Shown: piece by piece, positions 2,323-30,835 of the stretch | Layout: the number at the start of each line of letters is the position of its first letter | Numbering within the stretch: the stretch's first letter is position 1 | From: Bacteroidales bacterium | GTDB taxonomy: Bacteria; Bacteroidota; Bacteroidia; Bacteroidales; Tenuifilaceae | Direction of reading: 5' to 3' | Length of the DNA: 64,000 nt | NCBI GenBank assembly: GCA_017524185.1 | Contig: JAFWUG010000071.1 | Span: forward strand, 3,445-67,444 | Position numbers and translations under genes: made by a program | Notes under the pieces: generated by a model | What the model was told of the DNA's origin: nothing | The model's input: only the letters and a program-made list of their open reading frames with translations | The model's database searches: none

Positions 2323-2361
2323 TATAAAAGGAGAAACGCGAAACGCTCCAAAGAGGCAATG

Positions 2362-2381
2362 GGCGCGGAATAGTATTCCGC
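2362..2381. promoter_or_regulatory. Palindromic 20-mer GGCGCGGAATAGTATTCCGC, copy 2
   Basis: Exact 20/20 repeat, 59 bp from copy 1. Confidence 0.5.
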
Positions 2382-2422
2382 GTAACGGACGAAATAGGAT
2401 TTCGCACAGCCTGCATGTATGC

Positions 2423-2453
2423 AAAAAGCCGCCCCAATGAGGGCGGCTTTTTT
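2423..2453. terminator. Bidirectional rho-independent terminator
   Basis: AAAAA-AGCCGCCC-CAATGA-GGGCGGCT-TTTTT. It lies 19 nt after the stop of the lipoprotein gene (2472). Confidence 0.75.
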
Positions 2454-2471
2454 ATATATAAAAAATAGAAA

Positions 2472-3503
2472 CTATAGGTTAAATATCAACTTTAAGTGAG
2501 CATAAAGTTTAGGCATATCAGATGTTGCTTGACCTGTTTGACCGCCATCTTTATACGTAATAACACCACTTACTACGTCAAGGCTACCAATACCACACTC
2601 TTTACCATCTTGTATGGCAAAGATCTCTATCTTAGTCTCTTTTGTAATCTTAGTAGTGCCATCTATCTTAAGTTTAATATCTCCCCACCTAAGCTCGGCT
2701 TTATCCTTACCTACTAGTCCAGCTAAAGCCTGAGCATGTACATCCTGATAACTGTATATAGGATTTGTTACATCCATATTACGCACAATATAAAACATAC
2801 GTAAATAACTACCATTTCCAATAGTAATACCACCAAAACCTACACCGCTTGTAGCATTAGCGTTATACAAAATAGCAAAATCTTTTCCACCACTTGCTGT
2901 ACTATTAAACCTAAACGTAAAATCACCCAGATCTTTATTTTCGCGGTCAACAGTACAAGTAATTGGCGAAAATATTTGCGTTGTAAGATCAGGATAAAAA
3001 ATAGACGCACTAACGCTTAACTTAGGATCAGTTTCTTGACCTGCATATTGAACATAAGCATACTCCCCACCGTCCTCTAACGGAAAATACACAATAGAAT
3101 TTTTATCACCTCCTTCAATTGGCGTACCATCATCGTTCACTGTTAAATTCATTCCTTCCTCGAGGTTTCCATTAACATCCATTTCATATCCAACACCTGG
3201 TTGTATTGTCGTGTTGTCATGCCAAAAGAACAAGAAATCTTGGTAATAAGTACGATCCATATGCGGAATTTCACCCTCAAATTTTTTGTTACCTGCTTTT
3301 GCAAGCATCTTATCTATGATTTTAATAGCTGGTTCAGCAGCTATGTCTGCCTCTAAACCTGCAATTGCCTCATCAGATGCAATAAACGCAGCAAAAGCCT
3401 CTTCTTTTGTAAGGTCATCACCTTTCTTCTTCTTGCAGGAGGTCATCATGAGTCCTGCGCAAGCTACGAACGCGAGTCCGAGCATGAGTTTGTTTAGTTT
3501 CAT
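2472..3503 (-). CDS. Hypothetical lipoprotein (AT-rich gene)
   Basis: 343 aa. The signal peptide and lipobox are MKLNKLMLGLAFVACAGLMMTSC followed by KKKKGDD. GC content is clearly lower than in neighbouring genes. No family was recognised. Confidence 0.75.
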   Translation of the reverse strand: MKLNKLMLGLAFVACAGLMMTSCKKKKGDDLTKEEAFAAFIASDEAIAGLEADIAAEPAIKIIDKMLAKAGNKKFEGEIPHMDRTYYQDFLFFWHDNTTIQPGVGYEMDVNGNLEEGMNLTVNDDGTPIEGGDKNSIVYFPLEDGGEYAYVQYAGQETDPKLSVSASIFYPDLTTQIFSPITCTVDRENKDLGDFTFRFNSTASGGKDFAILYNANATSGVGFGGITIGNGSYLRMFYIVRNMDVTNPIYSYQDVHAQALAGLVGKDKAELRWGDIKLKIDGTTKITKETKIEIFAIQDGKECGIGSLDVVSGVITYKDGGQTGQATSDMPKLYAHLKLIFNL

Positions 3504-3547
3504 TGTAGTGGTATTGTTAAGTTAAACAGTTTACGGGTTAGGTGTAC

Positions 3548-3563
3548 AGCAAAAAGTGGGCCA
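3548..3563 (-). promoter_or_regulatory. Sigma-54-type -24/-12 promoter (TGGCCCACTTTTTGCT)
   Basis: GG and GC fall at consensus spacing, with one mismatch to TGGCAC-N5-TTGCW. The -12 element lies about 46 nt upstream of the ATG at 3503. Confidence 0.5.
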
Positions 3564-3800
3564 CAACAAAACACAATGCTACAAAAAAAACATGGGCGCA
3601 TGCAAAACGCTCGTTGTCAAACAGGTATTGTTCACTGTGCATGGTTCGCAACATAGGCATTGCATGTTATAACGAGACAAGGTCGCGTTTTGTTGCGCAC
3701 GGGGCGCGATGGGGGCGGCCATCCTGCCTAGTCGCGCTTGGTGGCTGGAAGAATAAACAGACCTTATAAGAAGCGCAACAGAACGAACCACCTATTTGTG

Positions 3801-3917
3801 CAAATTTTTCGGTGCATAGAAGTCAATAAATATAAGCGTTTCAGAAAAAACTGCAAATTATCGCGTTTTTGGAAGGCAAAAAGTGCAGATTATCGCGTTT
3901 TGGTTGATATATCATTG
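3801..3917. repeat. 117-bp direct repeat, copy 1
   Basis: About 85% identical to 3969-4085. It contains two 32-bp sub-repeats: AAAAAACTGCAAATTATCGCGTTTTTGG and AAAAAGTGCAGATTATCGCGTTTTGG. Confidence 0.8.
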
Positions 3918-3968
3918 TAAATCAAATATATATAAGCAAACAGGCATAATTCCACCAGCATAATAGTA

Positions 3969-4104: not shown

Positions 4105-5538
4105 CTACATATCTACAAGTGCTTCTTTGGCCATGTCGTTGAGCTTTGATGCGTCGAAAGGTTTTACAACTGATGGTTCGGTGTCGAAATCAAGCAAAAA
4201 CTGCATGTACAACGGGAGCGTAAGCAAAGAGCCGCAGCGGCCAACATTGTAGTCGCCAAACTTGATGATTTGCTGCACTTGGTATTTATCGGGGTGTTTG
4301 AGTACGGTTGATGCGCTCTTGGACTGGTTGCCCTTGGCCTTCACCTCAATGGGCACGCACTCGCCATGCAATCGTGCCAAAAAATCGAGCTCGAGTCCCG
4401 AATCTTTTTGGAAATAGTAGAGCGGTTGCCCCTTTTTATGAAGCGTGTCGGCCATCAGGTTTTCGAAGATGGCGCCCTTGAATCCACCCAAACGCCCCCG
4501 TAGTATGTCGGCGCGAGTGCCTGCGCCAAGCATCTCCACCAGCAAGCCTATGTCGGCCAAATAGACCTTGAATATGTTGTGGCGGGCGTTGCCCTCCATG
4601 GGAAGCCCAGTGATGTCGGTGTTGTAGCATCGGCATATAAGGCCAGCATCCTCGAGCCACTGAAGCGAGCCAGTGTAGGTTTCGCCCCTTCCGCCAGGCT
4701 TTACCTTGGTGTATTGAAACTTCTTGTTTTCCTTTGCAAGCTGCTTAGGCACAGAACCAAAGCACTCCCTGATGTGCGGTTTGTCCTTGTCAGGGGCGTA
4801 CTTCGCCATGTCGTCGCGATACTCCTTTAGTATGGAACGATACTCCTTGCTTACATCGTTCACGTTGTTGGTGCGGAGGAACGCATTGATTGGCGCGGGC
4901 AAACCGCCTATGGCTACGTAGAGATTCAAGTAGTCGCGCATGGCCACATGAATGCCTGCGGGTACGGGCTTTTCGGCTCGATAGTGATGCCGCAAAGTAT
5001 CTATAACATCAGTGTTCACGCCGTTAGCCCACAGAAACTCCTCAAAATCAAGCGGATACATTTCAATAATTTCTTCGCCCCCAACAGGCACGGAGTCGAT
5101 ACCCGTAGCCCACTGCATATCCATATTACGGCGTTTTTTGCGAAGTTCGTCGCCATAGCCTCTAACGCCAAGCAACGAGCCAGTTGCAATTACATCGAAA
5201 CGCCCATCCTCGTTGAAAAACTTGAGCGATGTACGCGCCTCGGGGCATTCCTGTATCTCGTCGAAAATGATACAGGTTTTATACGGAACAAACTTACTAC
5301 CAGCCACTTGTGCCGATAGGTTAAGCACTATGTTGTCAACCTCCTTGGAGTCGAGAAAAGCCTCAACAAGCTTGGGTTCTTTGATGAAGTTTAGATAAAC
5401 GACATGACTATAGTTTGCCTCGGCAAAATGCTGCGCAATGTAGGTTTTCCCACACTGCCGAATACCCATTATCAAAAGGGGCTTATGATTCGGAGTGTTT
5501 TTCCACTCCAAAAGTGATGCTTCAATTTTACGCCTCAT
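4105..5538 (-). CDS. AAA+ ATPase of the AAA_14/DUF4143 family (COG1373-like), paralog 1
   Basis: Walker A is GIRQCGKTY and Walker B is IIFDEIQ. It is collinear with the paralog at 27676-29046. I placed the start at the internal ATG 5538 (MRRKIEASLLEWKN), which aligns with the paralog N-terminus. The longest ORF extends to 5640, into the repeat array. Confidence 0.8.
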   Translation of the reverse strand: MRRKIEASLLEWKNTPNHKPLLIMGIRQCGKTYIAQHFAEANYSHVVYLNFIKEPKLVEAFLDSKEVDNIVLNLSAQVAGSKFVPYKTCIIFDEIQECPEARTSLKFFNEDGRFDVIATGSLLGVRGYGDELRKKRRNMDMQWATGIDSVPVGGEEIIEMYPLDFEEFLWANGVNTDVIDTLRHHYRAEKPVPAGIHVAMRDYLNLYVAIGGLPAPINAFLRTNNVNDVSKEYRSILKEYRDDMAKYAPDKDKPHIRECFGSVPKQLAKENKKFQYTKVKPGGRGETYTGSLQWLEDAGLICRCYNTDITGLPMEGNARHNIFKVYLADIGLLVEMLGAGTRADILRGRLGGFKGAIFENLMADTLHKKGQPLYYFQKDSGLELDFLARLHGECVPIEVKAKGNQSKSASTVLKHPDKYQVQQIIKFGDYNVGRCGSLLTLPLYMQFLLDFDTEPSVVKPFDASKLNDMAKEALVDM

Positions 5539-5564
5539 AGCGTCTGCTTTGCTGTTTAAAAACG

Positions 5565-5572
5565 CAAATGTA
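5565..5572 (-). promoter_or_regulatory. -7 box TACATTTG for ATPase paralog 1
   Basis: TAnnTTTG on the minus strand, about 27 nt upstream of ATG 5538. Confidence 0.45.
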
Positions 5573-5607
5573 TGATTTTCGGGTATATAAAACAAATATT
5601 GTTGCAA

Positions 5608-5793
5608 TTTTTCCAACGACTTTTGATGCAACCAACGCATTTTTTCTAACGACTTATGATGCTATCAACGTAATTTTTATAATGACTTATGATACTATCA
5701 ACACATTTTTTACAATGACTTTTAATGCAACCAACGCATTTTTTCTACCGACTTTTGATGCAACGAACGCATTTTTTCCAACGACTTTTGACA
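5608..5793. repeat. 33-bp tandem array, 5.6 units (consensus TTTTTCYAACGACTTTTGATGCAACCAACGCAT)
   Basis: The GACTT anchor falls at 5618, 5651, 5684, 5717, 5750 and 5783, which are exact 33-bp steps. The last unit is truncated. Confidence 0.95.
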
Positions 5794-5888
5794 AGGTGCA
5801 TCCGTGCGGCAAACACCAACAAGCCCTCCCCGTCGATGTGGCACTCCCAACTTTTTACACTACTTTTGCAACGGAAAAAACGAGCAGA

Positions 5889-7286
5889 ATGGATACCAAT
5901 AGCACTATAGCAGCCATAAGCACGCCCGCAGGCATGGGGGCTTTGGCCGTTATACGCCTAAGCGGGCCACAGGCCACGAGCATTGCCGATAAGGTGTTTA
6001 GGGCTAAATCGGGGCAGTCGTTGGAGCAACAGCCCCACAGCACCGTGCGCTATGGAGCCATTGTGGACGACCAGCGCGAGGTAGACGAGGTGATGGTGAG
6101 CGTGTTCCGCGCACCGCGCTCGTTCACGGGGCAGAATATGGTGGAGATTGCGTGCCATGGGTCGCCCGTGATACAGCGTCAGATTGTGCAACTGCTGATT
6201 CGGCATGGCGCAAAGCCCGCCGCGCCTGGCGAATTTACGCTACGCGCTTTCGTGCATGGGCGGCTCGACCTTGCCCAGGCCGAGGCCGTGGCCGACCTGA
6301 TTGCCTCGAGCAGCGAGGCCGCGCGACGCATGGCCATGCAGCAGCTGCGCGGCGGAGTGTCGTCGCTGCTGAGCCAGCTGCGCCAGAAACTGGTACACCT
6401 GATGGCCATGCTGGAGCTGGAGCTCGACTTCTCGGAGGAGGACGTGGAGTTTGCCAACCGCGACGAGCTGCGCCAGCTGCTGCTCGACGTGCGCACCGAA
6501 GCTGCGCGATTGGCTGGCACATTCGAAGCGGGCAACGCCCTCAAAGAGGGCATTGCGGTGGCCATAGCGGGCCGACCCAATGCGGGCAAGTCGACGCTGC
6601 TAAACCGCCTGCTGCGCGAGGAGCGCGCTTTAGTGTCGGACATCCCCGGCACCACGCGCGACAGCATCGAGGAGCAGATTAGCCTCGGCGGCATGGCTTT
6701 TAGGCTGATCGACACCGCTGGCCTTAGGCAGACAACCGACAGCGTTGAACGCATGGGCATTGCCCGTGCACAGGAGCGCATAGCCCGCGCAGCGGTGGTA
6801 CTCTACCTGGTGGATGCCGCCACCCCTCTGCCCGATATGCTTGACGAAGTGGAAACGTTTGCCAAGCAACTAGAATCGGGGCAGCGGCTGTTGGTGCTGA
6901 TGTCGAAAATAGACTGCGCCCCGCCAACAAGCGAAACGGCAGTCAAACAGTTGATGGACAGGAATATATGTCAGCAAGTGATACTATTATCGGCGCAAAG
7001 CGGCGAGGGGTGCGATGCGCTCGAGGATGCGCTGATTGCCATTGGTAGCTCGTTGCTACCCGAGGAGGGCAGCGTGGTGCTCACCAACGCCCGCCACGAA
7101 CATGCGCTGCGGGCTGCCATTGATGGCATAGATGGTGCGCTGAACGGCATTGAGCAGGGGCTAACCGCCGACCTGCTGGCGGTGGAGCTGCGCTACGCGC
7201 TGGAGCATATTGGCAGCATCACGGGCGAAATCACCACCGATGAGGTGCTGGGCGATATTTTCGCAAATTTCTGTATTGGAAAGTAG
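5889..7286 (+). CDS. mnmE: tRNA modification GTPase MnmE
   Basis: 465 aa from ATG 5889 (MDTNSTIAAISTPAGMGALAVIRLSG). The G-domain has GRPNAGKST and DTAG, and the C-terminal motif is CIGK. The upstream in-frame extension to 5568 is repeat-derived. Confidence 0.95.
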   Translation: MDTNSTIAAISTPAGMGALAVIRLSGPQATSIADKVFRAKSGQSLEQQPHSTVRYGAIVDDQREVDEVMVSVFRAPRSFTGQNMVEIACHGSPVIQRQIVQLLIRHGAKPAAPGEFTLRAFVHGRLDLAQAEAVADLIASSSEAARRMAMQQLRGGVSSLLSQLRQKLVHLMAMLELELDFSEEDVEFANRDELRQLLLDVRTEAARLAGTFEAGNALKEGIAVAIAGRPNAGKSTLLNRLLREERALVSDIPGTTRDSIEEQISLGGMAFRLIDTAGLRQTTDSVERMGIARAQERIARAAVVLYLVDAATPLPDMLDEVETFAKQLESGQRLLVLMSKIDCAPPTSETAVKQLMDRNICQQVILLSAQSGEGCDALEDALIAIGSSLLPEEGSVVLTNARHEHALRAAIDGIDGALNGIEQGLTADLLAVELRYALEHIGSITGEITTDEVLGDIFANFCIGK

Positions 7287-27675: not shown

Positions 27676-29046
27676 CTACCGCCAACTTTGCTTCATGCTG
27701 CCCAGCGCGTAGAGCGGGTATACATCAATGTGTCGGATAGGGCTGGAGTCGTCAGGGGCGGGCTGGGAATCGGTGTGGTCGTAGGACGCAAAATTTTCCA
27801 ACGACGTGCGAACCGCCGCGTGGAGATGCTTCGTCCGCATGAACAGGTACATGCTTTGCATGGCCCCCTGTGTGCTGGCCTTCACCTCGATGGGGAGGAT
27901 AACGCCTTTGCGCACCTCGAGGTAGTCTACCTCGGCATTGGCGTTCTTGCTGTGCCGATACCAATAGTACATCTCGGAGCGCTGAAAGCAGTCGCTGCTC
28001 TTCATCAACTCAAGACCGGCAAAAATCTCGGCCATAGCTCCCTTGTTCACCAGCTCTAGGTCCGTGGCCAACAAAACCTCGGTGCTGGGAATACTTTGCC
28101 AGGAGAGCAAAAGCCCCGTGTCGAGGAATAGGTACTTAACCCCACGGTCGCTCACCTGAGCACCAAGCGGCAAGCCATCGGCGAATGTGTGTTCAACCGG
28201 CACGATTAGTCCGGCCTGCGTGAGTTTGCGCAACGCCCGCTTCACCACAGCGCTCCGGATTTCGTCGTCGGCCTGATTGTAAACAAACTTGGTTCCGCCC
28301 TGGAGCGCAACGGCCCGCAGCACCTTGCGAAGCAGCTCGGGCGACATGCGCTCCTGGTATTTACCAAAATCGTCGAGGTAGGTTTCCATGATGTCGCTGT
28401 GCACGCGGGCGCAGGCCAGGTAATCGTGGGTTTCGACCCACGCCGACACGGCCTCGGGCATACCACCAACCAGCATAAAGCTGCGCACCTGCTCAATCAT
28501 CATCTGGTGCAGCACATCGTCGAGCGGCTGCTGTGGACTGGCACTGCGAATGGCATCGAGCTGCATATCAAGCCCTTGCGCTTTCAGAAACTCGTCGAAC
28601 GAGAACGGATACATATAGAGTGAACGGATGCGCCCCACCGCAAACGACGGGATTTCGGACAGGGCGAACTCCAGCAACGAGCCCGCCGCTACAACATGCA
28701 GCTCGGGGTAGTCCTCCTTGAAGTAGCGAAGCGACATGATGGCGGGGAGGCAACTCTGGATTTCGTCGATAAAGAGCAACGTTTTGCCTGGGATAATAGG
28801 GATGCCTACAGCAGAGCTGATTTTGCTGCACGTTTTCTTGACATCAATATCGGTAGTAAAAAAAGCCTGAAGACTCGCCTGCTTTTCGAGATTGATTTCA
28901 ACATAGTGCTTGAACGTTTTGCCCAGTTTGCGCACCGCCGACGATTTTCCCACCTGCCTAGCACCACGAATAAGGAGCGGTTTGTGATGGGGTGCGTCTC
29001 GCCACTCAAGGAGTTGCTCATCTACTCTTCTATTAAAATAGGCCAT
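27676..29046 (-). CDS. AAA+ ATPase of the AAA_14/DUF4143 family, paralog 2
   Basis: 456 aa. Walker A is GARQVGKSS and Walker B is LLFIDEIQ. Architecture matches 4105-5538. Confidence 0.85.
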   Translation of the reverse strand: MAYFNRRVDEQLLEWRDAPHHKPLLIRGARQVGKSSAVRKLGKTFKHYVEINLEKQASLQAFFTTDIDVKKTCSKISSAVGIPIIPGKTLLFIDEIQSCLPAIMSLRYFKEDYPELHVVAAGSLLEFALSEIPSFAVGRIRSLYMYPFSFDEFLKAQGLDMQLDAIRSASPQQPLDDVLHQMMIEQVRSFMLVGGMPEAVSAWVETHDYLACARVHSDIMETYLDDFGKYQERMSPELLRKVLRAVALQGGTKFVYNQADDEIRSAVVKRALRKLTQAGLIVPVEHTFADGLPLGAQVSDRGVKYLFLDTGLLLSWQSIPSTEVLLATDLELVNKGAMAEIFAGLELMKSSDCFQRSEMYYWYRHSKNANAEVDYLEVRKGVILPIEVKASTQGAMQSMYLFMRTKHLHAAVRTSLENFASYDHTDSQPAPDDSSPIRHIDVYPLYALGSMKQSWR

Positions 29047-29067: not shown

Positions 29068-29075
29068 CAAAGGTA
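29068..29075 (-). promoter_or_regulatory. -7 box TACCTTTG for ATPase paralog 2
   Basis: TAnnTTTG on the minus strand, 22-29 nt upstream of ATG 29046. Confidence 0.45.
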
Positions 29076-29087
29076 GGATTTTTTGCA

Positions 29088-29306
29088 CAAATCCAACCCA
29101 AAAATCGGCAATAAAATGACAAAATACAACCCAAAAAACGACAATATCGTGCTAAAATCCAACCCAAAATTTCGCAACATCGTGCTAAAATCCAACCCAA
29201 AAATCGACATTGTTATGCTAAATTCCAATCCAAAAATCGACAACATCACGCCATAATCCAACCCAAAAACCGACAACATTGTGCTAAAATCCAACCCAAA
29301 ACTAAC
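29088..29306. repeat. 33-bp tandem array, 6.6 units (consensus AAAATCCAACCCAAAAATCGACAACATCGTGCT)
   Basis: The (T/A)CCAA anchor falls at 29093, 29126, 29159, 29192, 29225, 29258 and 29291, which are exact 33-bp steps. The last unit is truncated. Confidence 0.95.
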
Positions 29307-29349: not shown

Positions 29350-29411
29350 GTGTAAAGTTTGTGTAAAGCAAAGTGTAAAATCGCCTTTACAACTTTACAC
29401 TTTTTTTACAC
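29350..29411. promoter_or_regulatory. Candidate enhancer (UAS) block: three GTGTAAAG-type repeats facing three CTTTACAC-type repeats
   Basis: GTGTAAAG occurs at 29350 and 29361, and GTGTAAAA at 29373. CTTTACA occurs at 29385, CTTTACAC at 29393 and TTTTACAC at 29404. The dyad centre is near 29381. The block lies 47-108 nt upstream of the -24 element. Confidence 0.45.
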
Positions 29412-29457
29412 TTTATGTAAGACATAAACAACTATAACATAAGTACTTAAATAGTTT

Positions 29458-29503: not shown

Positions 29504-30835
29504 ATGTTTTACAGAAACCTCATAGCAATAATAGCCGCCACAGTGCTCGCGCTGAACACCAAAGCTCAGCCGCTCACGCTCAAGCAGTGCATGGAATATG
29601 CCATGACCCACGCCACGCAGCTGCGCGTGAAGAACACCGAGGCCGACAACGCCCGCCGCGAACGCCGCAATGCCATTCTGTCGGCTTTCACACCCACGGT
29701 GAGCGCAAGCACTAGCGCTTACTATCAGTTTGGACGCAACATCGACCCGCAAACCAACACCTATTTCAACACCACGTCGTTCCACAACAACTATGGCGTT
29801 GATGCGGGAATCGACCTGTTCAACGGCTTTAGCGCGGTGAACAACATACGGATAGCCAAAACCACCATGCTCATGGCTCAGTCGGAGCAGGAGCAGGCCG
29901 AGGCCAATATCTGCTTAGCTGTGATGGAAGCCTACTACAACGTGCTGTACTACAGCACAATGCTCGGCATCTACGCCGAACAGGTGGCCAACGCCGAGGA
30001 GGCCCTGAAGCGGGCGCAGCGGCAGGAGGAACTGGGCCAGAAAGGTCGCGCCGACGTGCTACAGATGGAGGCCGACCTAGCCGACCGCCGTTTCGAACAG
30101 CTCAACATGCAGCACATACACACCAACCAGCTGATGGTGCTGTCGGACCTAATGCTGTGGCCGCTCGACGAGCCGCTGGCCATCGATACCACGCTACCCG
30201 CCGCTCCCCTCGCCCAACCCGCCAGCACCAACGGCGACGAGGTGGTGAGTTTCGCCATGGAGCATAACCCCAGCGTGAAACTGGCCTCGCTATCGGTGAG
30301 CAACGCCCAGCGCGAACTCTCAACCGCCCGCTGGCAACGGCTTCCGAAGTTAAGCCTCTACGCTGGCTGGGGTACCAACTACTTTAACTACGAGGGTACG
30401 CAAACAATGCCATTTGCCGAGCAGTTTAGCAACAACCGAGGCGAATATGTGCAGCTAGCGCTCTCAATTCCGATTTGGGGGCGCATGCAGCGGCAATCGA
30501 ACGTGGCTCGCAAACGCAACGCCCTAACGGTGGCCAACGCCGAGCTGGACCAAAAGCGCCGCGACGTGGAGAGCGAAGTGCGTCGCGCCATGCACGACCG
30601 CGACGATGCCGCCCTGGCCCTACAGCAGGCTCAGCGCAGAGCCGAGGTGCAGAACCAGACCTACGCGCTCAACCTGAAACGGCTTCAGCAGGGGCTAATA
30701 TCGCCCATCGAGTTTCAAACGGCCAGCAACAGCTATCTAAAGGCGCAGGCCGATGCCACCAGCGCCCTGTTCAAGCTGCTAATAAAGCACGCCGTGGTGC
30801 GCTACTACGGCGGCGAGGAATACATCAACCAGTAG
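29504..30835 (+). CDS. TolC-family outer membrane efflux protein
   Basis: 443 aa with a signal peptide and two coiled-coil/beta-barrel repeats typical of the OEP family. Confidence 0.85.
   Translation: MFYRNLIAIIAATVLALNTKAQPLTLKQCMEYAMTHATQLRVKNTEADNARRERRNAILSAFTPTVSASTSAYYQFGRNIDPQTNTYFNTTSFHNNYGVDAGIDLFNGFSAVNNIRIAKTTMLMAQSEQEQAEANICLAVMEAYYNVLYYSTMLGIYAEQVANAEEALKRAQRQEELGQKGRADVLQMEADLADRRFEQLNMQHIHTNQLMVLSDLMLWPLDEPLAIDTTLPAAPLAQPASTNGDEVVSFAMEHNPSVKLASLSVSNAQRELSTARWQRLPKLSLYAGWGTNYFNYEGTQTMPFAEQFSNNRGEYVQLALSIPIWGRMQRQSNVARKRNALTVANAELDQKRRDVESEVRRAMHDRDDAALALQQAQRRAEVQNQTYALNLKRLQQGLISPIEFQTASNSYLKAQADATSALFKLLIKHAVVRYYGGEEYINQ

Follow-up and report, generated by a model that had tools for sequence, protein, structure and literature searches.

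Phased 32- to 33-bp repeat arrays upstream of AAA_14-DUF4143 ATPase genes as candidate autoregulatory operators

Plasmid iterons of the P1, F, R6K and pPS10 type lie beside the Rep gene and recur with a period of about 17 to 22 bp. The dnaA gene is autoregulated, and the parC centromere overlaps a promoter, its occupancy autoregulating the operon.

The genes considered here belong to PDC-S01, in published descriptions a fusion of an ATPase with a PD-(D/E)XK domain; it is reported to rank fourth in frequency among the defence loci of prokaryotes, with counts of about 9,986 in archaea and 29,494 in bacteria. In rumen genomes it is the most frequent single locus. The PDC systems comprise 145 "untested phage defence candidates" discovered inside known defence systems; most of them still await validation, and the function of DUF4143, a PD-(D/E)XK family, is listed as unknown. 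In the full-text literature, with subscription journals partly covered, we found no description of upstream repeats or of regulation for DUF4143/COG1373/PDC-S01 genes.

The window analysed here is the whole 64-kb stretch of DNA. Upstream of a minus-strand AAA_14+DUF4143 gene (4105-5538), it carries an array of six units with exact 33-bp spacing. As in iterons, at least three asymmetric sites are arranged head-to-tail at a constant, helically phased distance (six cores, 33 bp).

Two arrays and two ATPase genes in the window

Tandem Repeats Finder (TRF) placed array 1 at 5604-5791 (period 33, 5.7 copies, 81% matches, 0% indels, score 229). A first, sequence-only reading of this DNA had reported six units in exact 33-bp register, and this was confirmed, with GACTT at 5618, 5651, 5684, 5717, 5750 and 5783. 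All units are oriented as the ATPase gene, the start codon of which (5538) is backed by homologue alignment. Promoters, here and in all other loci, were assigned by consensus, and cores were scored with a position weight matrix (PWM). The features of the locus are the following.

4105..5538, minus strand: paralog 1, an ATPase of 477 aa with AAA_14 and DUF4143 (PD-(D/E)XK) domains (Pfam, 1.3e-22 and 1.1e-30)
5565..5572, minus strand: predicted -7 box of the ATPase gene, TACATTTG, Bacteroidetes-type, by consensus only
5573..5605, minus strand: degenerate promoter-proximal unit, 61% match to the shifted register
5593-5596, minus strand: candidate -33 element TTTG, 20 nt upstream of the -7 box, read from the sequence
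5604..5791, minus strand: array 1, with a core of ~18 nt and a linker of ~14 nt per unit (TRF; direct-repeat families D1 and D2)
5606..5623, minus strand: core 1, the gene-proximal good core, AAAGTCGTTGGAAAAATT, PWM 22.8 bits
5639..5656, minus strand: core 2, TAAGTCGTTAGAAAAAAT, PWM 20.9 bits
5672..5689, minus strand: core 3, the weakest, TAAGTCATTATAAAAATT, PWM 11.0 bits
5705..5722, minus strand: core 4, AAAGTCATTGTAAAAAAT, PWM 16.1 bits
5738..5755, minus strand: core 5, AAAGTCGGTAGAAAAAAT, PWM 19.6 bits
5771..5788, minus strand: core 6, gene-distal and the best match, AAAGTCGTTGGAAAAAAT, PWM 24.3 bits
5861-5868, plus strand: -7 box of mnmE, TACTTTTG, by consensus
5889..7286, plus strand: mnmE (Pfam), the divergent neighbour, outside the module

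Some details of the first reading needed amendment. The gene-distal unit, described as truncated, does lack its linker, but its core (5771-5788) is complete. The two T-tracts seen in each unit are present; on the gene-sense strand they are A-tracts, and both fall inside the PWM core, as AAA at positions 1-3 (only position 3 is well conserved) and as a near-invariant A-run at 12-16. The -7 box proposed for the ATPase gene is also there, its position now corrected to 5565-5572 on the minus strand, where TACATTTG is the only TAnnTTTG on the ATPase strand between array 1 and the ATG.

The degenerate unit (5573..5605) occupies one unit-length between core 1 (5606-5623) and the -7 box and gives no PWM match above 10 bits. 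Sequence comparison shows that this is the position at which relatives carry an intact core abutting the -7 box. In the paralog 1 gene, no intact core overlaps the predicted promoter, the overlapping unit being degenerate, and the six intact sites extend from ~33 nt (roughly -40 from the presumed start site) to ~220 nt upstream of the -7 box. For array 1, the sites of which lie upstream of the -33 element, activation or architecture fits as well as repression.

Since the period equals 11 codons, long open reading frames run through array 1. Those at 5568..7286 (+) and 5725..5910 (+), already suspected of being spurious, are mechanical ORFs, and 4105..5640 (-) is an additional one. A coding repeat was rejected, because the ORFs are mechanical extensions, the 5538 ATG is the start used by homologues and the promoter boxes are downstream of the array. 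Among the neighbourhoods of relatives, mnmE adjoins the ATPase only in the near-identical strain L001; its synteny was dropped as a clue, being common only to this same-species contig.

A second array of the same period lies elsewhere in the window.

27676..29046, minus strand: paralog 2, an AAA_14 + DUF4143 ATPase of 456 aa, 28% identical to paralog 1
29068..29075, minus strand: -7 box of paralog 2, TACCTTTG, by consensus, 13 nt after the last array 2 core
29089..29301, minus strand: array 2, with seven cores reading TTTTGGGTTGGATTT on the gene-sense strand (TRF period 33, 6.5 copies)

The cores of array 2 are also spaced by exactly 33 bp (29089, 29122, ... 29287). TRF finds only two arrays with a period >21 and a score >200 in the 64-kb window, and each of them lies directly upstream of one of its only two AAA_14/DUF4143 genes; with the only two such arrays at two of two paralogs, chance is excluded. 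The core of array 2 differs from that of array 1: the array-1 PWM gives no match in array 2, and its matches in the window are the six array 1 cores only. Both proteins match PDC-S01 in PADLOC (8.3e-146 for paralog 1 and 7.3e-131 for paralog 2), and both the domain order, an N-terminal AAA_14 P-loop followed by DUF4143 (PD-(D/E)XK), and the single-gene cassette are those of this family. Residues D385, E398 and K400 are invariant in the homologue alignment.

Core, linker and promoter register across the family

One genome per species was sampled, which gave 80 loci encoding proteins 50-79% identical to paralog 1, from Bacteroidales and from MAGs of Lachnospiraceae, Oscillospiraceae, Erysipelotrichaceae and Phascolarctobacterium. 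The PWM was scored on a set of 78 relatives (50-97% identity) from Bacteroidales and Firmicutes MAGs. A further homologue search, run with a two-sequence profile, yielded hardly any new diversity. By TRF, 42-45 of the 80 loci have an array of period 32-33 between about -30 and -180 relative to the start codon. Such TRF rows numbered 47 upstream versus 2 elsewhere in 513 kb, and one of these two belongs to a divergent second paralog. The best autocorrelation lag was 32, 33, 65 or 66 in 61 of 78 upstream segments (-200..-30) versus 9.5% of 2,811 control windows.

Rotation of the unit consensus across loci showed that no more than about half of each unit is common to them. The core consensus on the gene-sense strand, obtained with a PWM refined on the upstream regions, is WWAKTCGYTNGAAAAAGT, of which GTCGTTGG is the part apart from the A-tracts. 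In 253 sites, T5, C6, T9 and A13-A16 are conserved at 97-100%. All 78 loci carry cores, always co-oriented with the gene, and their number ranges from 1 to 7 (mode 3), a count that may be collapsed in short-read assemblies and that is bounded in several loci by contigs ending a few hundred bases upstream of the gene. The core-to-core spacing was 33 bp in 120 cases and 32 bp in 44, with hardly any other value. Information content is ~1-2 bits at most core positions from 3 to 19 and near zero at 20-33. Accordingly, the identity between loci is 0.71 for the core and 0.34 for the linker. Within an array these values are 0.81 and 0.52, which indicates, from sequence comparison, that the units of an array evolve in concert. 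A conserved asymmetric core combined with an unconstrained linker is the signature of a protein-binding site. Core similarity within the clade could partly reflect shared ancestry; the linkers of the same arrays, however, diverged freely.

The motif is linked to these genes almost exclusively. PWM matches above 12 bits numbered 243 on the sense strand at -350..0 versus 10 in the remaining ~1.03 Mb (both strands), and none of these 10 is an antisense match in an upstream region.

The first reading had also considered a curved-DNA or UP element. Phased A-tracts could in principle set promoter strength through such protein-independent architecture: each core carries a near-invariant A5 run, repeated every 32-33 bp, and in the paralog 1 gene the array is directly upstream of the promoter. 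However, T5, C6, T9 and G11, outside the A-tract, are as conserved as the A-run (T5, C6 and T9 at ~95-98%), the cores of the two paralogs differ, those of the paralog-2 and other clades are quite different, and some loci have cores downstream of the -7 box. These observations speak against pure curvature or a UP element, and we consider this explanation very improbable.

Relatives of paralog 2 (metagenomes, 60-73% identity) mostly carry 33-bp arrays of 2.4-4.5 units, with a clade core of roughly TTKSCYTGRMTTTTRGMAAAA, the last unit preceding TAnnTTTG. The same design, with clade-specific cores, was found in distant plasmid members (28-38% identity). Among the bacterial and viral members sampled, the distant ones span Pseudomonadota, Chlamydiota, Bacillota and Bacteroidota, and five phyla are named in the plasmid records. 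Examples are given below.

Glaesserella plasmid: three units of CTTTCCTTTGAAAAAGTG, the last of which supplies the predicted -35 element, 17 nt before TAAAAT
Vibrio plasmid: 2.8 units of period 32, core TGCGCRTAAAARTGTA
Acinetobacter plasmid: two units, core TGCGCRTAAAARTGTA, as in Vibrio
Criblamydia: 3.2 units of period 32
Agathobacter: four units of period 33
Phocaeicola plasmid: two sites 66 bp apart, one on each side of the -7 box

Members on viral contigs (26-39% identity; contigs unclassified) mostly have 32-33-bp repeats as well; one of them (L172) has a palindrome in place of direct repeats, and two loci (L162 and L163) showed no clear direct repeats. For 14 of 20 distinct distant loci, the modal spacing of near-identical 12-mers was 32, 33, 64 or 66; for 5 of 363 control windows, it was 32 or 33. 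The first reading's expectation that arrays accompany other DUF4143 genes is thus borne out by phased cores in 78 of 78 relatives of paralog 1, by 33-bp arrays in most relatives of paralog 2 and by the repeat spacing in 14 of 20 distant members. Contig L044 encodes two adjacent, divergently transcribed paralogs, each with its own five-unit array, and their cores are TCCCTTGAAAAAGTG and TGTTGGAAAAACGGACAAAA. Cores of different clades have TTGRA and an A/T-run in common. Next to the arrays only the ATPase gene is conserved, the neighbourhoods being otherwise unrelated.

In most relatives, the arrays are joined to the predicted core promoter in a fixed register. In the Bacteroidales type (46 of 79 loci), 0-1 nt separate the end of a core from the TAnnTTTG, and the core/-7 junction is GAAAAAGTG-TAnnTTTG. 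In Firmicutes loci, the core's TTGAAA lies 16-17 nt upstream of TATAAT or TATACT and is the predicted -35 hexamer. In several loci the -7 box has sites on both sides, an additional core lying 33 nt downstream and immediately ahead of the ATG. Strain L001 resembles the paralog 1 gene: its unit abutting the -7 box is degenerate, and the good cores begin one unit upstream. That the same core is joined to two promoter types argues for a site bound by a factor, as opposed to a promoter element, and where the proximal site overlaps -35 or -7 elements, repression would be expected.

A few loci have one or two units between the predicted -7 box and the ATG, where they could be transcribed as part of a structured 5' leader or a small RNA. 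In most loci, however, the units are upstream of the promoter. A role as RNA also ranks low because neither strand of array 1 shows a folding signal (z = -0.07 and -0.74) and Rfam gives no match at E ≤ 1, two results on which a structured RNA was rejected; we find a transcribed repeat barely credible.

The sites could be bound by a factor other than the ATPase, such as a host regulator or an alternative sigma factor. This would agree with the dual role of TTGAAA as core and -35 hexamer in Firmicutes and with the TTGRA and A/T-run common to the cores of different clades. Yet the motif hardly occurs outside the region upstream of its own gene (243 versus 10 matches), it accompanies the gene through five phyla and viral contigs while the neighbourhoods are unrelated, co-resident paralogs differ in their cores, and the same core is kept in Bacteroidota and Firmicutes despite their different promoter types. 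Another factor is, in our view, improbable. As to an ECF-sigma promoter in each unit, the spacing in the sequence does not fit.

Unit number varies between strains, as the first reading had supposed it might. L001 (97%-identical protein, same mnmE context) has 6.7 units versus 5.7 in the window, and its alignment with array 1 shows a clean 33-bp indel within the array, near-identical flanks and more diverged inner units. A paralog-2-type cluster whose genes are at least 98% identical contains arrays of 2 to 4 units. The additional suggestion that unit number might switch expression on and off (phase variation) finds no support, since 33-bp steps keep the helical face; it is also disfavoured by the position of the paralog 1 promoter, outside the well-preserved units that vary between strains.

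Binder, mechanism and the main rival

Taken together, the sequence comparisons support the first reading's iteron-like array of protein-binding sites through the family-wide phased cores, the contrast between core and linker and the variable unit number. The core is strictly spaced, co-oriented, asymmetric and under purifying selection, while the linkers are unconstrained, the promoter register is fixed and the occurrence is near-exclusive to one family, all of which suggest a protein-binding array in a promoter. In our best reading, the array would be a cis-regulatory operator array belonging to the ATPase gene itself. The most parsimonious binder is the gene's own product, because the ATPase gene is the sole conserved neighbour of the arrays, because the module moves as a unit between phyla and replicons and because co-resident paralogs have distinct cores. 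We infer the identity of the binder, the cooperativity and the sign of the regulation: on balance, the array is probably bound head-to-tail by this product, resulting in cooperative negative autoregulation.

Under autoregulation by its own product, the ATPase, with its AAA+, helical, probable winged-helix and PD-(D/E)XK nuclease domains, would bind one ~18-nt site per protomer. As 32-33 bp corresponds to about three helical turns, the sites would be presented on roughly one face of the DNA, and asymmetric direct repeats suit a head-to-tail AAA+ assembly; protomers might polymerise along the array in the manner of the AAA+ proteins DnaA and ORC/Cdc6. Occupancy of the promoter-proximal site would occlude the promoter and impose a steep negative autoregulation on a potentially dangerous nuclease. 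In most family members, the array extends into the predicted core promoter. In the paralog 1 gene, control would require spreading, wrapping or looping, because the promoter-proximal site has decayed. Slippage or unequal exchange may change the unit number and thereby set cooperativity and the set-point.

A search of PDB sequences returned no solved structure matching the ATPase, with only P-loop matches to midasin, and NCBIfam gave nothing useful. An AlphaFold2 model built on a shallow alignment is poor (mean pLDDT 59.5), too poor to define a DNA-binding surface; it places an AAA+ core, a helical region, a helix (283-297), a beta hairpin (301-307/323-327) and a C-terminal alpha/beta domain. 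The best fold matches of this low-confidence model were the archaeal AAA+ chains 2fna and 2qen, followed by NB-ARC, ORC and DnaA, with E-values of only 1.6e-6 at best. When the putative winged-helix segment was scanned against Pfam, no wHTH family was found, only DUF4143. A winged-helix DNA-binding domain in the modelled ATPase is plausible but not established, since the fold matches are to AAA+ proteins but no wHTH family matches in Pfam.

The main rival to an autoregulatory operator is a docking or assembly platform, with a foreign regulator, pure curvature and an RNA role ranking lower. The sites would still be bound by the ATPase, and their main task would be to nucleate or park an oligomer of the AAA+ nuclease on the chromosome, for example as an inactive store released on infection or as a loading site, control of expression being secondary. 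Up to 6-7 phased sites exceed the need of simple repression, the intact sites of the paralog 1 gene are all upstream of the promoter, the modelled fold may resemble ORC/Cdc6, STAND and DnaA proteins, which assemble on arrays or ligands, and the family is a candidate defence gene. On the other hand, most loci have 2-4 sites, and the proximal site overlaps promoter elements at a fixed register, which points to transcription control and not to docking. We regard such a platform as possible but rather unlikely.

A more far-reaching version, which we deem unlikely, would make the arrays docking sites on which the AAA+ nuclease is held inactive or licensed until released by infection, or would link them to nuclease-driven recombination, gene conversion or mobility. 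Each AAA_14-DUF4143 gene might then be a self-contained protein-plus-site module, the nuclease polymerising on its own phased sites, and infection or foreign DNA carrying competing sites would release or activate it. If true, this would be a new control of a single-gene immune or selfish element by a self-carried DNA "address."

Significance and comparison with known systems

The gene-linked motif is a first concrete handle on what AAA_14-DUF4143 proteins recognise: it predicts sequence-specific DNA binding, provides the sequence and predicts autoregulation. The homologues of the same design on Acinetobacter, Vibrio and Glaesserella plasmids may offer tractable hosts, and the variation in unit number between strains is a possible tuning mechanism. 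The arrays also explain the frequent N-terminally over-extended ORF annotations and the assembly breaks at these genes.

Plasmid iterons resemble these arrays in being head-to-tail, helically phased, asymmetric monomer-type repeats adjoining the gene of the presumed binder, with a variable repeat number and a sequence specific to each system. In contrast to iterons, the DUF4143 arrays have a period of 32-33 bp, lack origin features and are fused to a promoter; the loci here are chromosomal, with several paralogs per genome, and the protein is an AAA+ PD-(D/E)XK fusion, whereas iterons are bound by a WH-WH Rep initiator. A plasmid replication origin was rejected for array 1, given that the ATPase is not a Rep protein, the context is chromosomal (mnmE) and two arrays occur in 64 kb.

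Arrays of asymmetric sites beside the gene of an AAA+ protein that has a DNA-binding domain and recognises them are also known for DnaA, with boxes at oriC and at the dnaA promoter, and for archaeal Orc1/Cdc6, with ORBs. They differ in that ORBs stand in inverted orientation about an unwinding element and the 9-mer DnaA boxes are variably spaced, and nothing suggests a replication role for the DUF4143 arrays. The partition centromeres (R1 parC, 10 x 11 bp; F sopC, 12 x 43 bp) are also tandem arrays beside the genes of their binders. Those centromeres, however, are plasmid-borne, and their RHH or ParB binders are accompanied by a partner ATPase, whereas here there is a single chromosomal gene without a segregation context.

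The operators of type II TA systems and of BrxR- or CapW-type regulators resemble the DUF4143 arrays in belonging to a horizontally mobile, self-contained cassette in which a promoter-overlapping operator, for the DUF4143 genes a predicted one, would keep a potentially toxic effector low. They are usually palindromes bound by dedicated small repressors, unlike the 2-7 direct repeats found here, for which the effector itself is the presumed repressor. CRISPR arrays, too, have regularly spaced conserved repeats with less conserved segments between them, but there repeats of about 24-48 bp alternate with unique spacers of comparable length; the total period of the DUF4143 array is 33 bp and not about 60-70 bp, and the array is fused to a promoter. 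The first reading had already set a CRISPR array aside, and we reject it as well on the basis of the 33-bp period, the 14-nt linkers that are related within the array (0.52) and the lack of cas genes. The mechanistic kind is therefore a familiar one, an iteron- or operator-like array. What appears new is the 32-33-bp core-plus-linker design, its joining to two promoter types and its family-wide link to abundant uncharacterised genes.

Period and cores of the second array

The second DUF4143 paralog gene (paralog 2) is also preceded by an array, and a cluster of other repeats lies beyond it:

29089-29301: array 2, 33-bp units with seven cores, upstream of the second DUF4143 paralog gene (27676-29046, minus strand)
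29350-29414: GTGTAAAG / CTTTACAC cluster, in the stretch that separates array 2 from the outer-membrane efflux (OEP) gene (29504-30835)

The core of array 2, the conserved part of each unit, is TTTTGGGTTGGATTT and is unlike that of array 1, which lies upstream of paralog 1. TRF scored a 99-bp (three-unit) period slightly better both in array 1 (5608-5791; 83% versus 81%) and in array 2 (29089-29301; 81% versus 78%), which hints that the units of both arrays were duplicated as three-unit blocks. The cluster beyond array 2 comprises about three direct copies of GTGTAAAG followed by about three inverted ones (CTTTACAC), and may be a separate regulator-binding region for the efflux operon.

Direct repeats are not used by every member of the DUF4143 family. 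A distant member on a viral contig (L172) is an exception to this design, with a perfect palindrome, TTAAGTCAAGAAAAATAT ... ATATTTTTCTTGACTTAA, replacing them upstream of the gene (~1360-1410). At another locus, L034, additional strong core matches were observed beyond the main array, at -390, -357 and +3198 from the gene start; these outlying cores may have been left behind by an older array or by another copy.

Gene calls and contig ends at the arrays

Each 33-bp unit corresponds to 11 codons without stops, so that ORF callers can extend both the ATPase gene and the divergent mnmE into array 1 (4105-5640, minus strand, and 5568-7286, plus strand, respectively). Many database homologues are 488 to 541 aa long rather than ~477 aa (noted for P0002, P0005, P0012, and P0026), and this excess length probably reflects starts mis-called within arrays. 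Many homologues are also found on very short contigs or 100 to 450 nt from the upstream-side contig end (L003, L004, L011, L015, L022, L041, L051, and L074). It seems, then, that breaks in short-read assemblies frequently fall close to these arrays or multi-copy genes, so that array lengths may be under-reported.

Genomic neighbourhood of the family

Paralogs of the family can adjoin one another. Two are divergent in L044 (2474-3003), with a five-unit array for each, and in L029 (~730-860) a second paralog has three CTGAAAATGTGATTTTT units flanking its -7 box. Directly downstream of the paralog 1 ATPase gene, comparison with the near-identical strain L001 revealed a cassette swap (window 2332-3968 versus L001 7570-10753). 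L001 carries a HipA_C and HTH gene pair plus a 322-aa ORF, while the window has another segment here, of 1.6 kb, whose 343-aa ORF has no match in Pfam or NCBIfam. This spot looks variable and defence-island-like. HipA/HTH also adjoins a DUF4143 family member in a Phocaeicola plasmid (L165).
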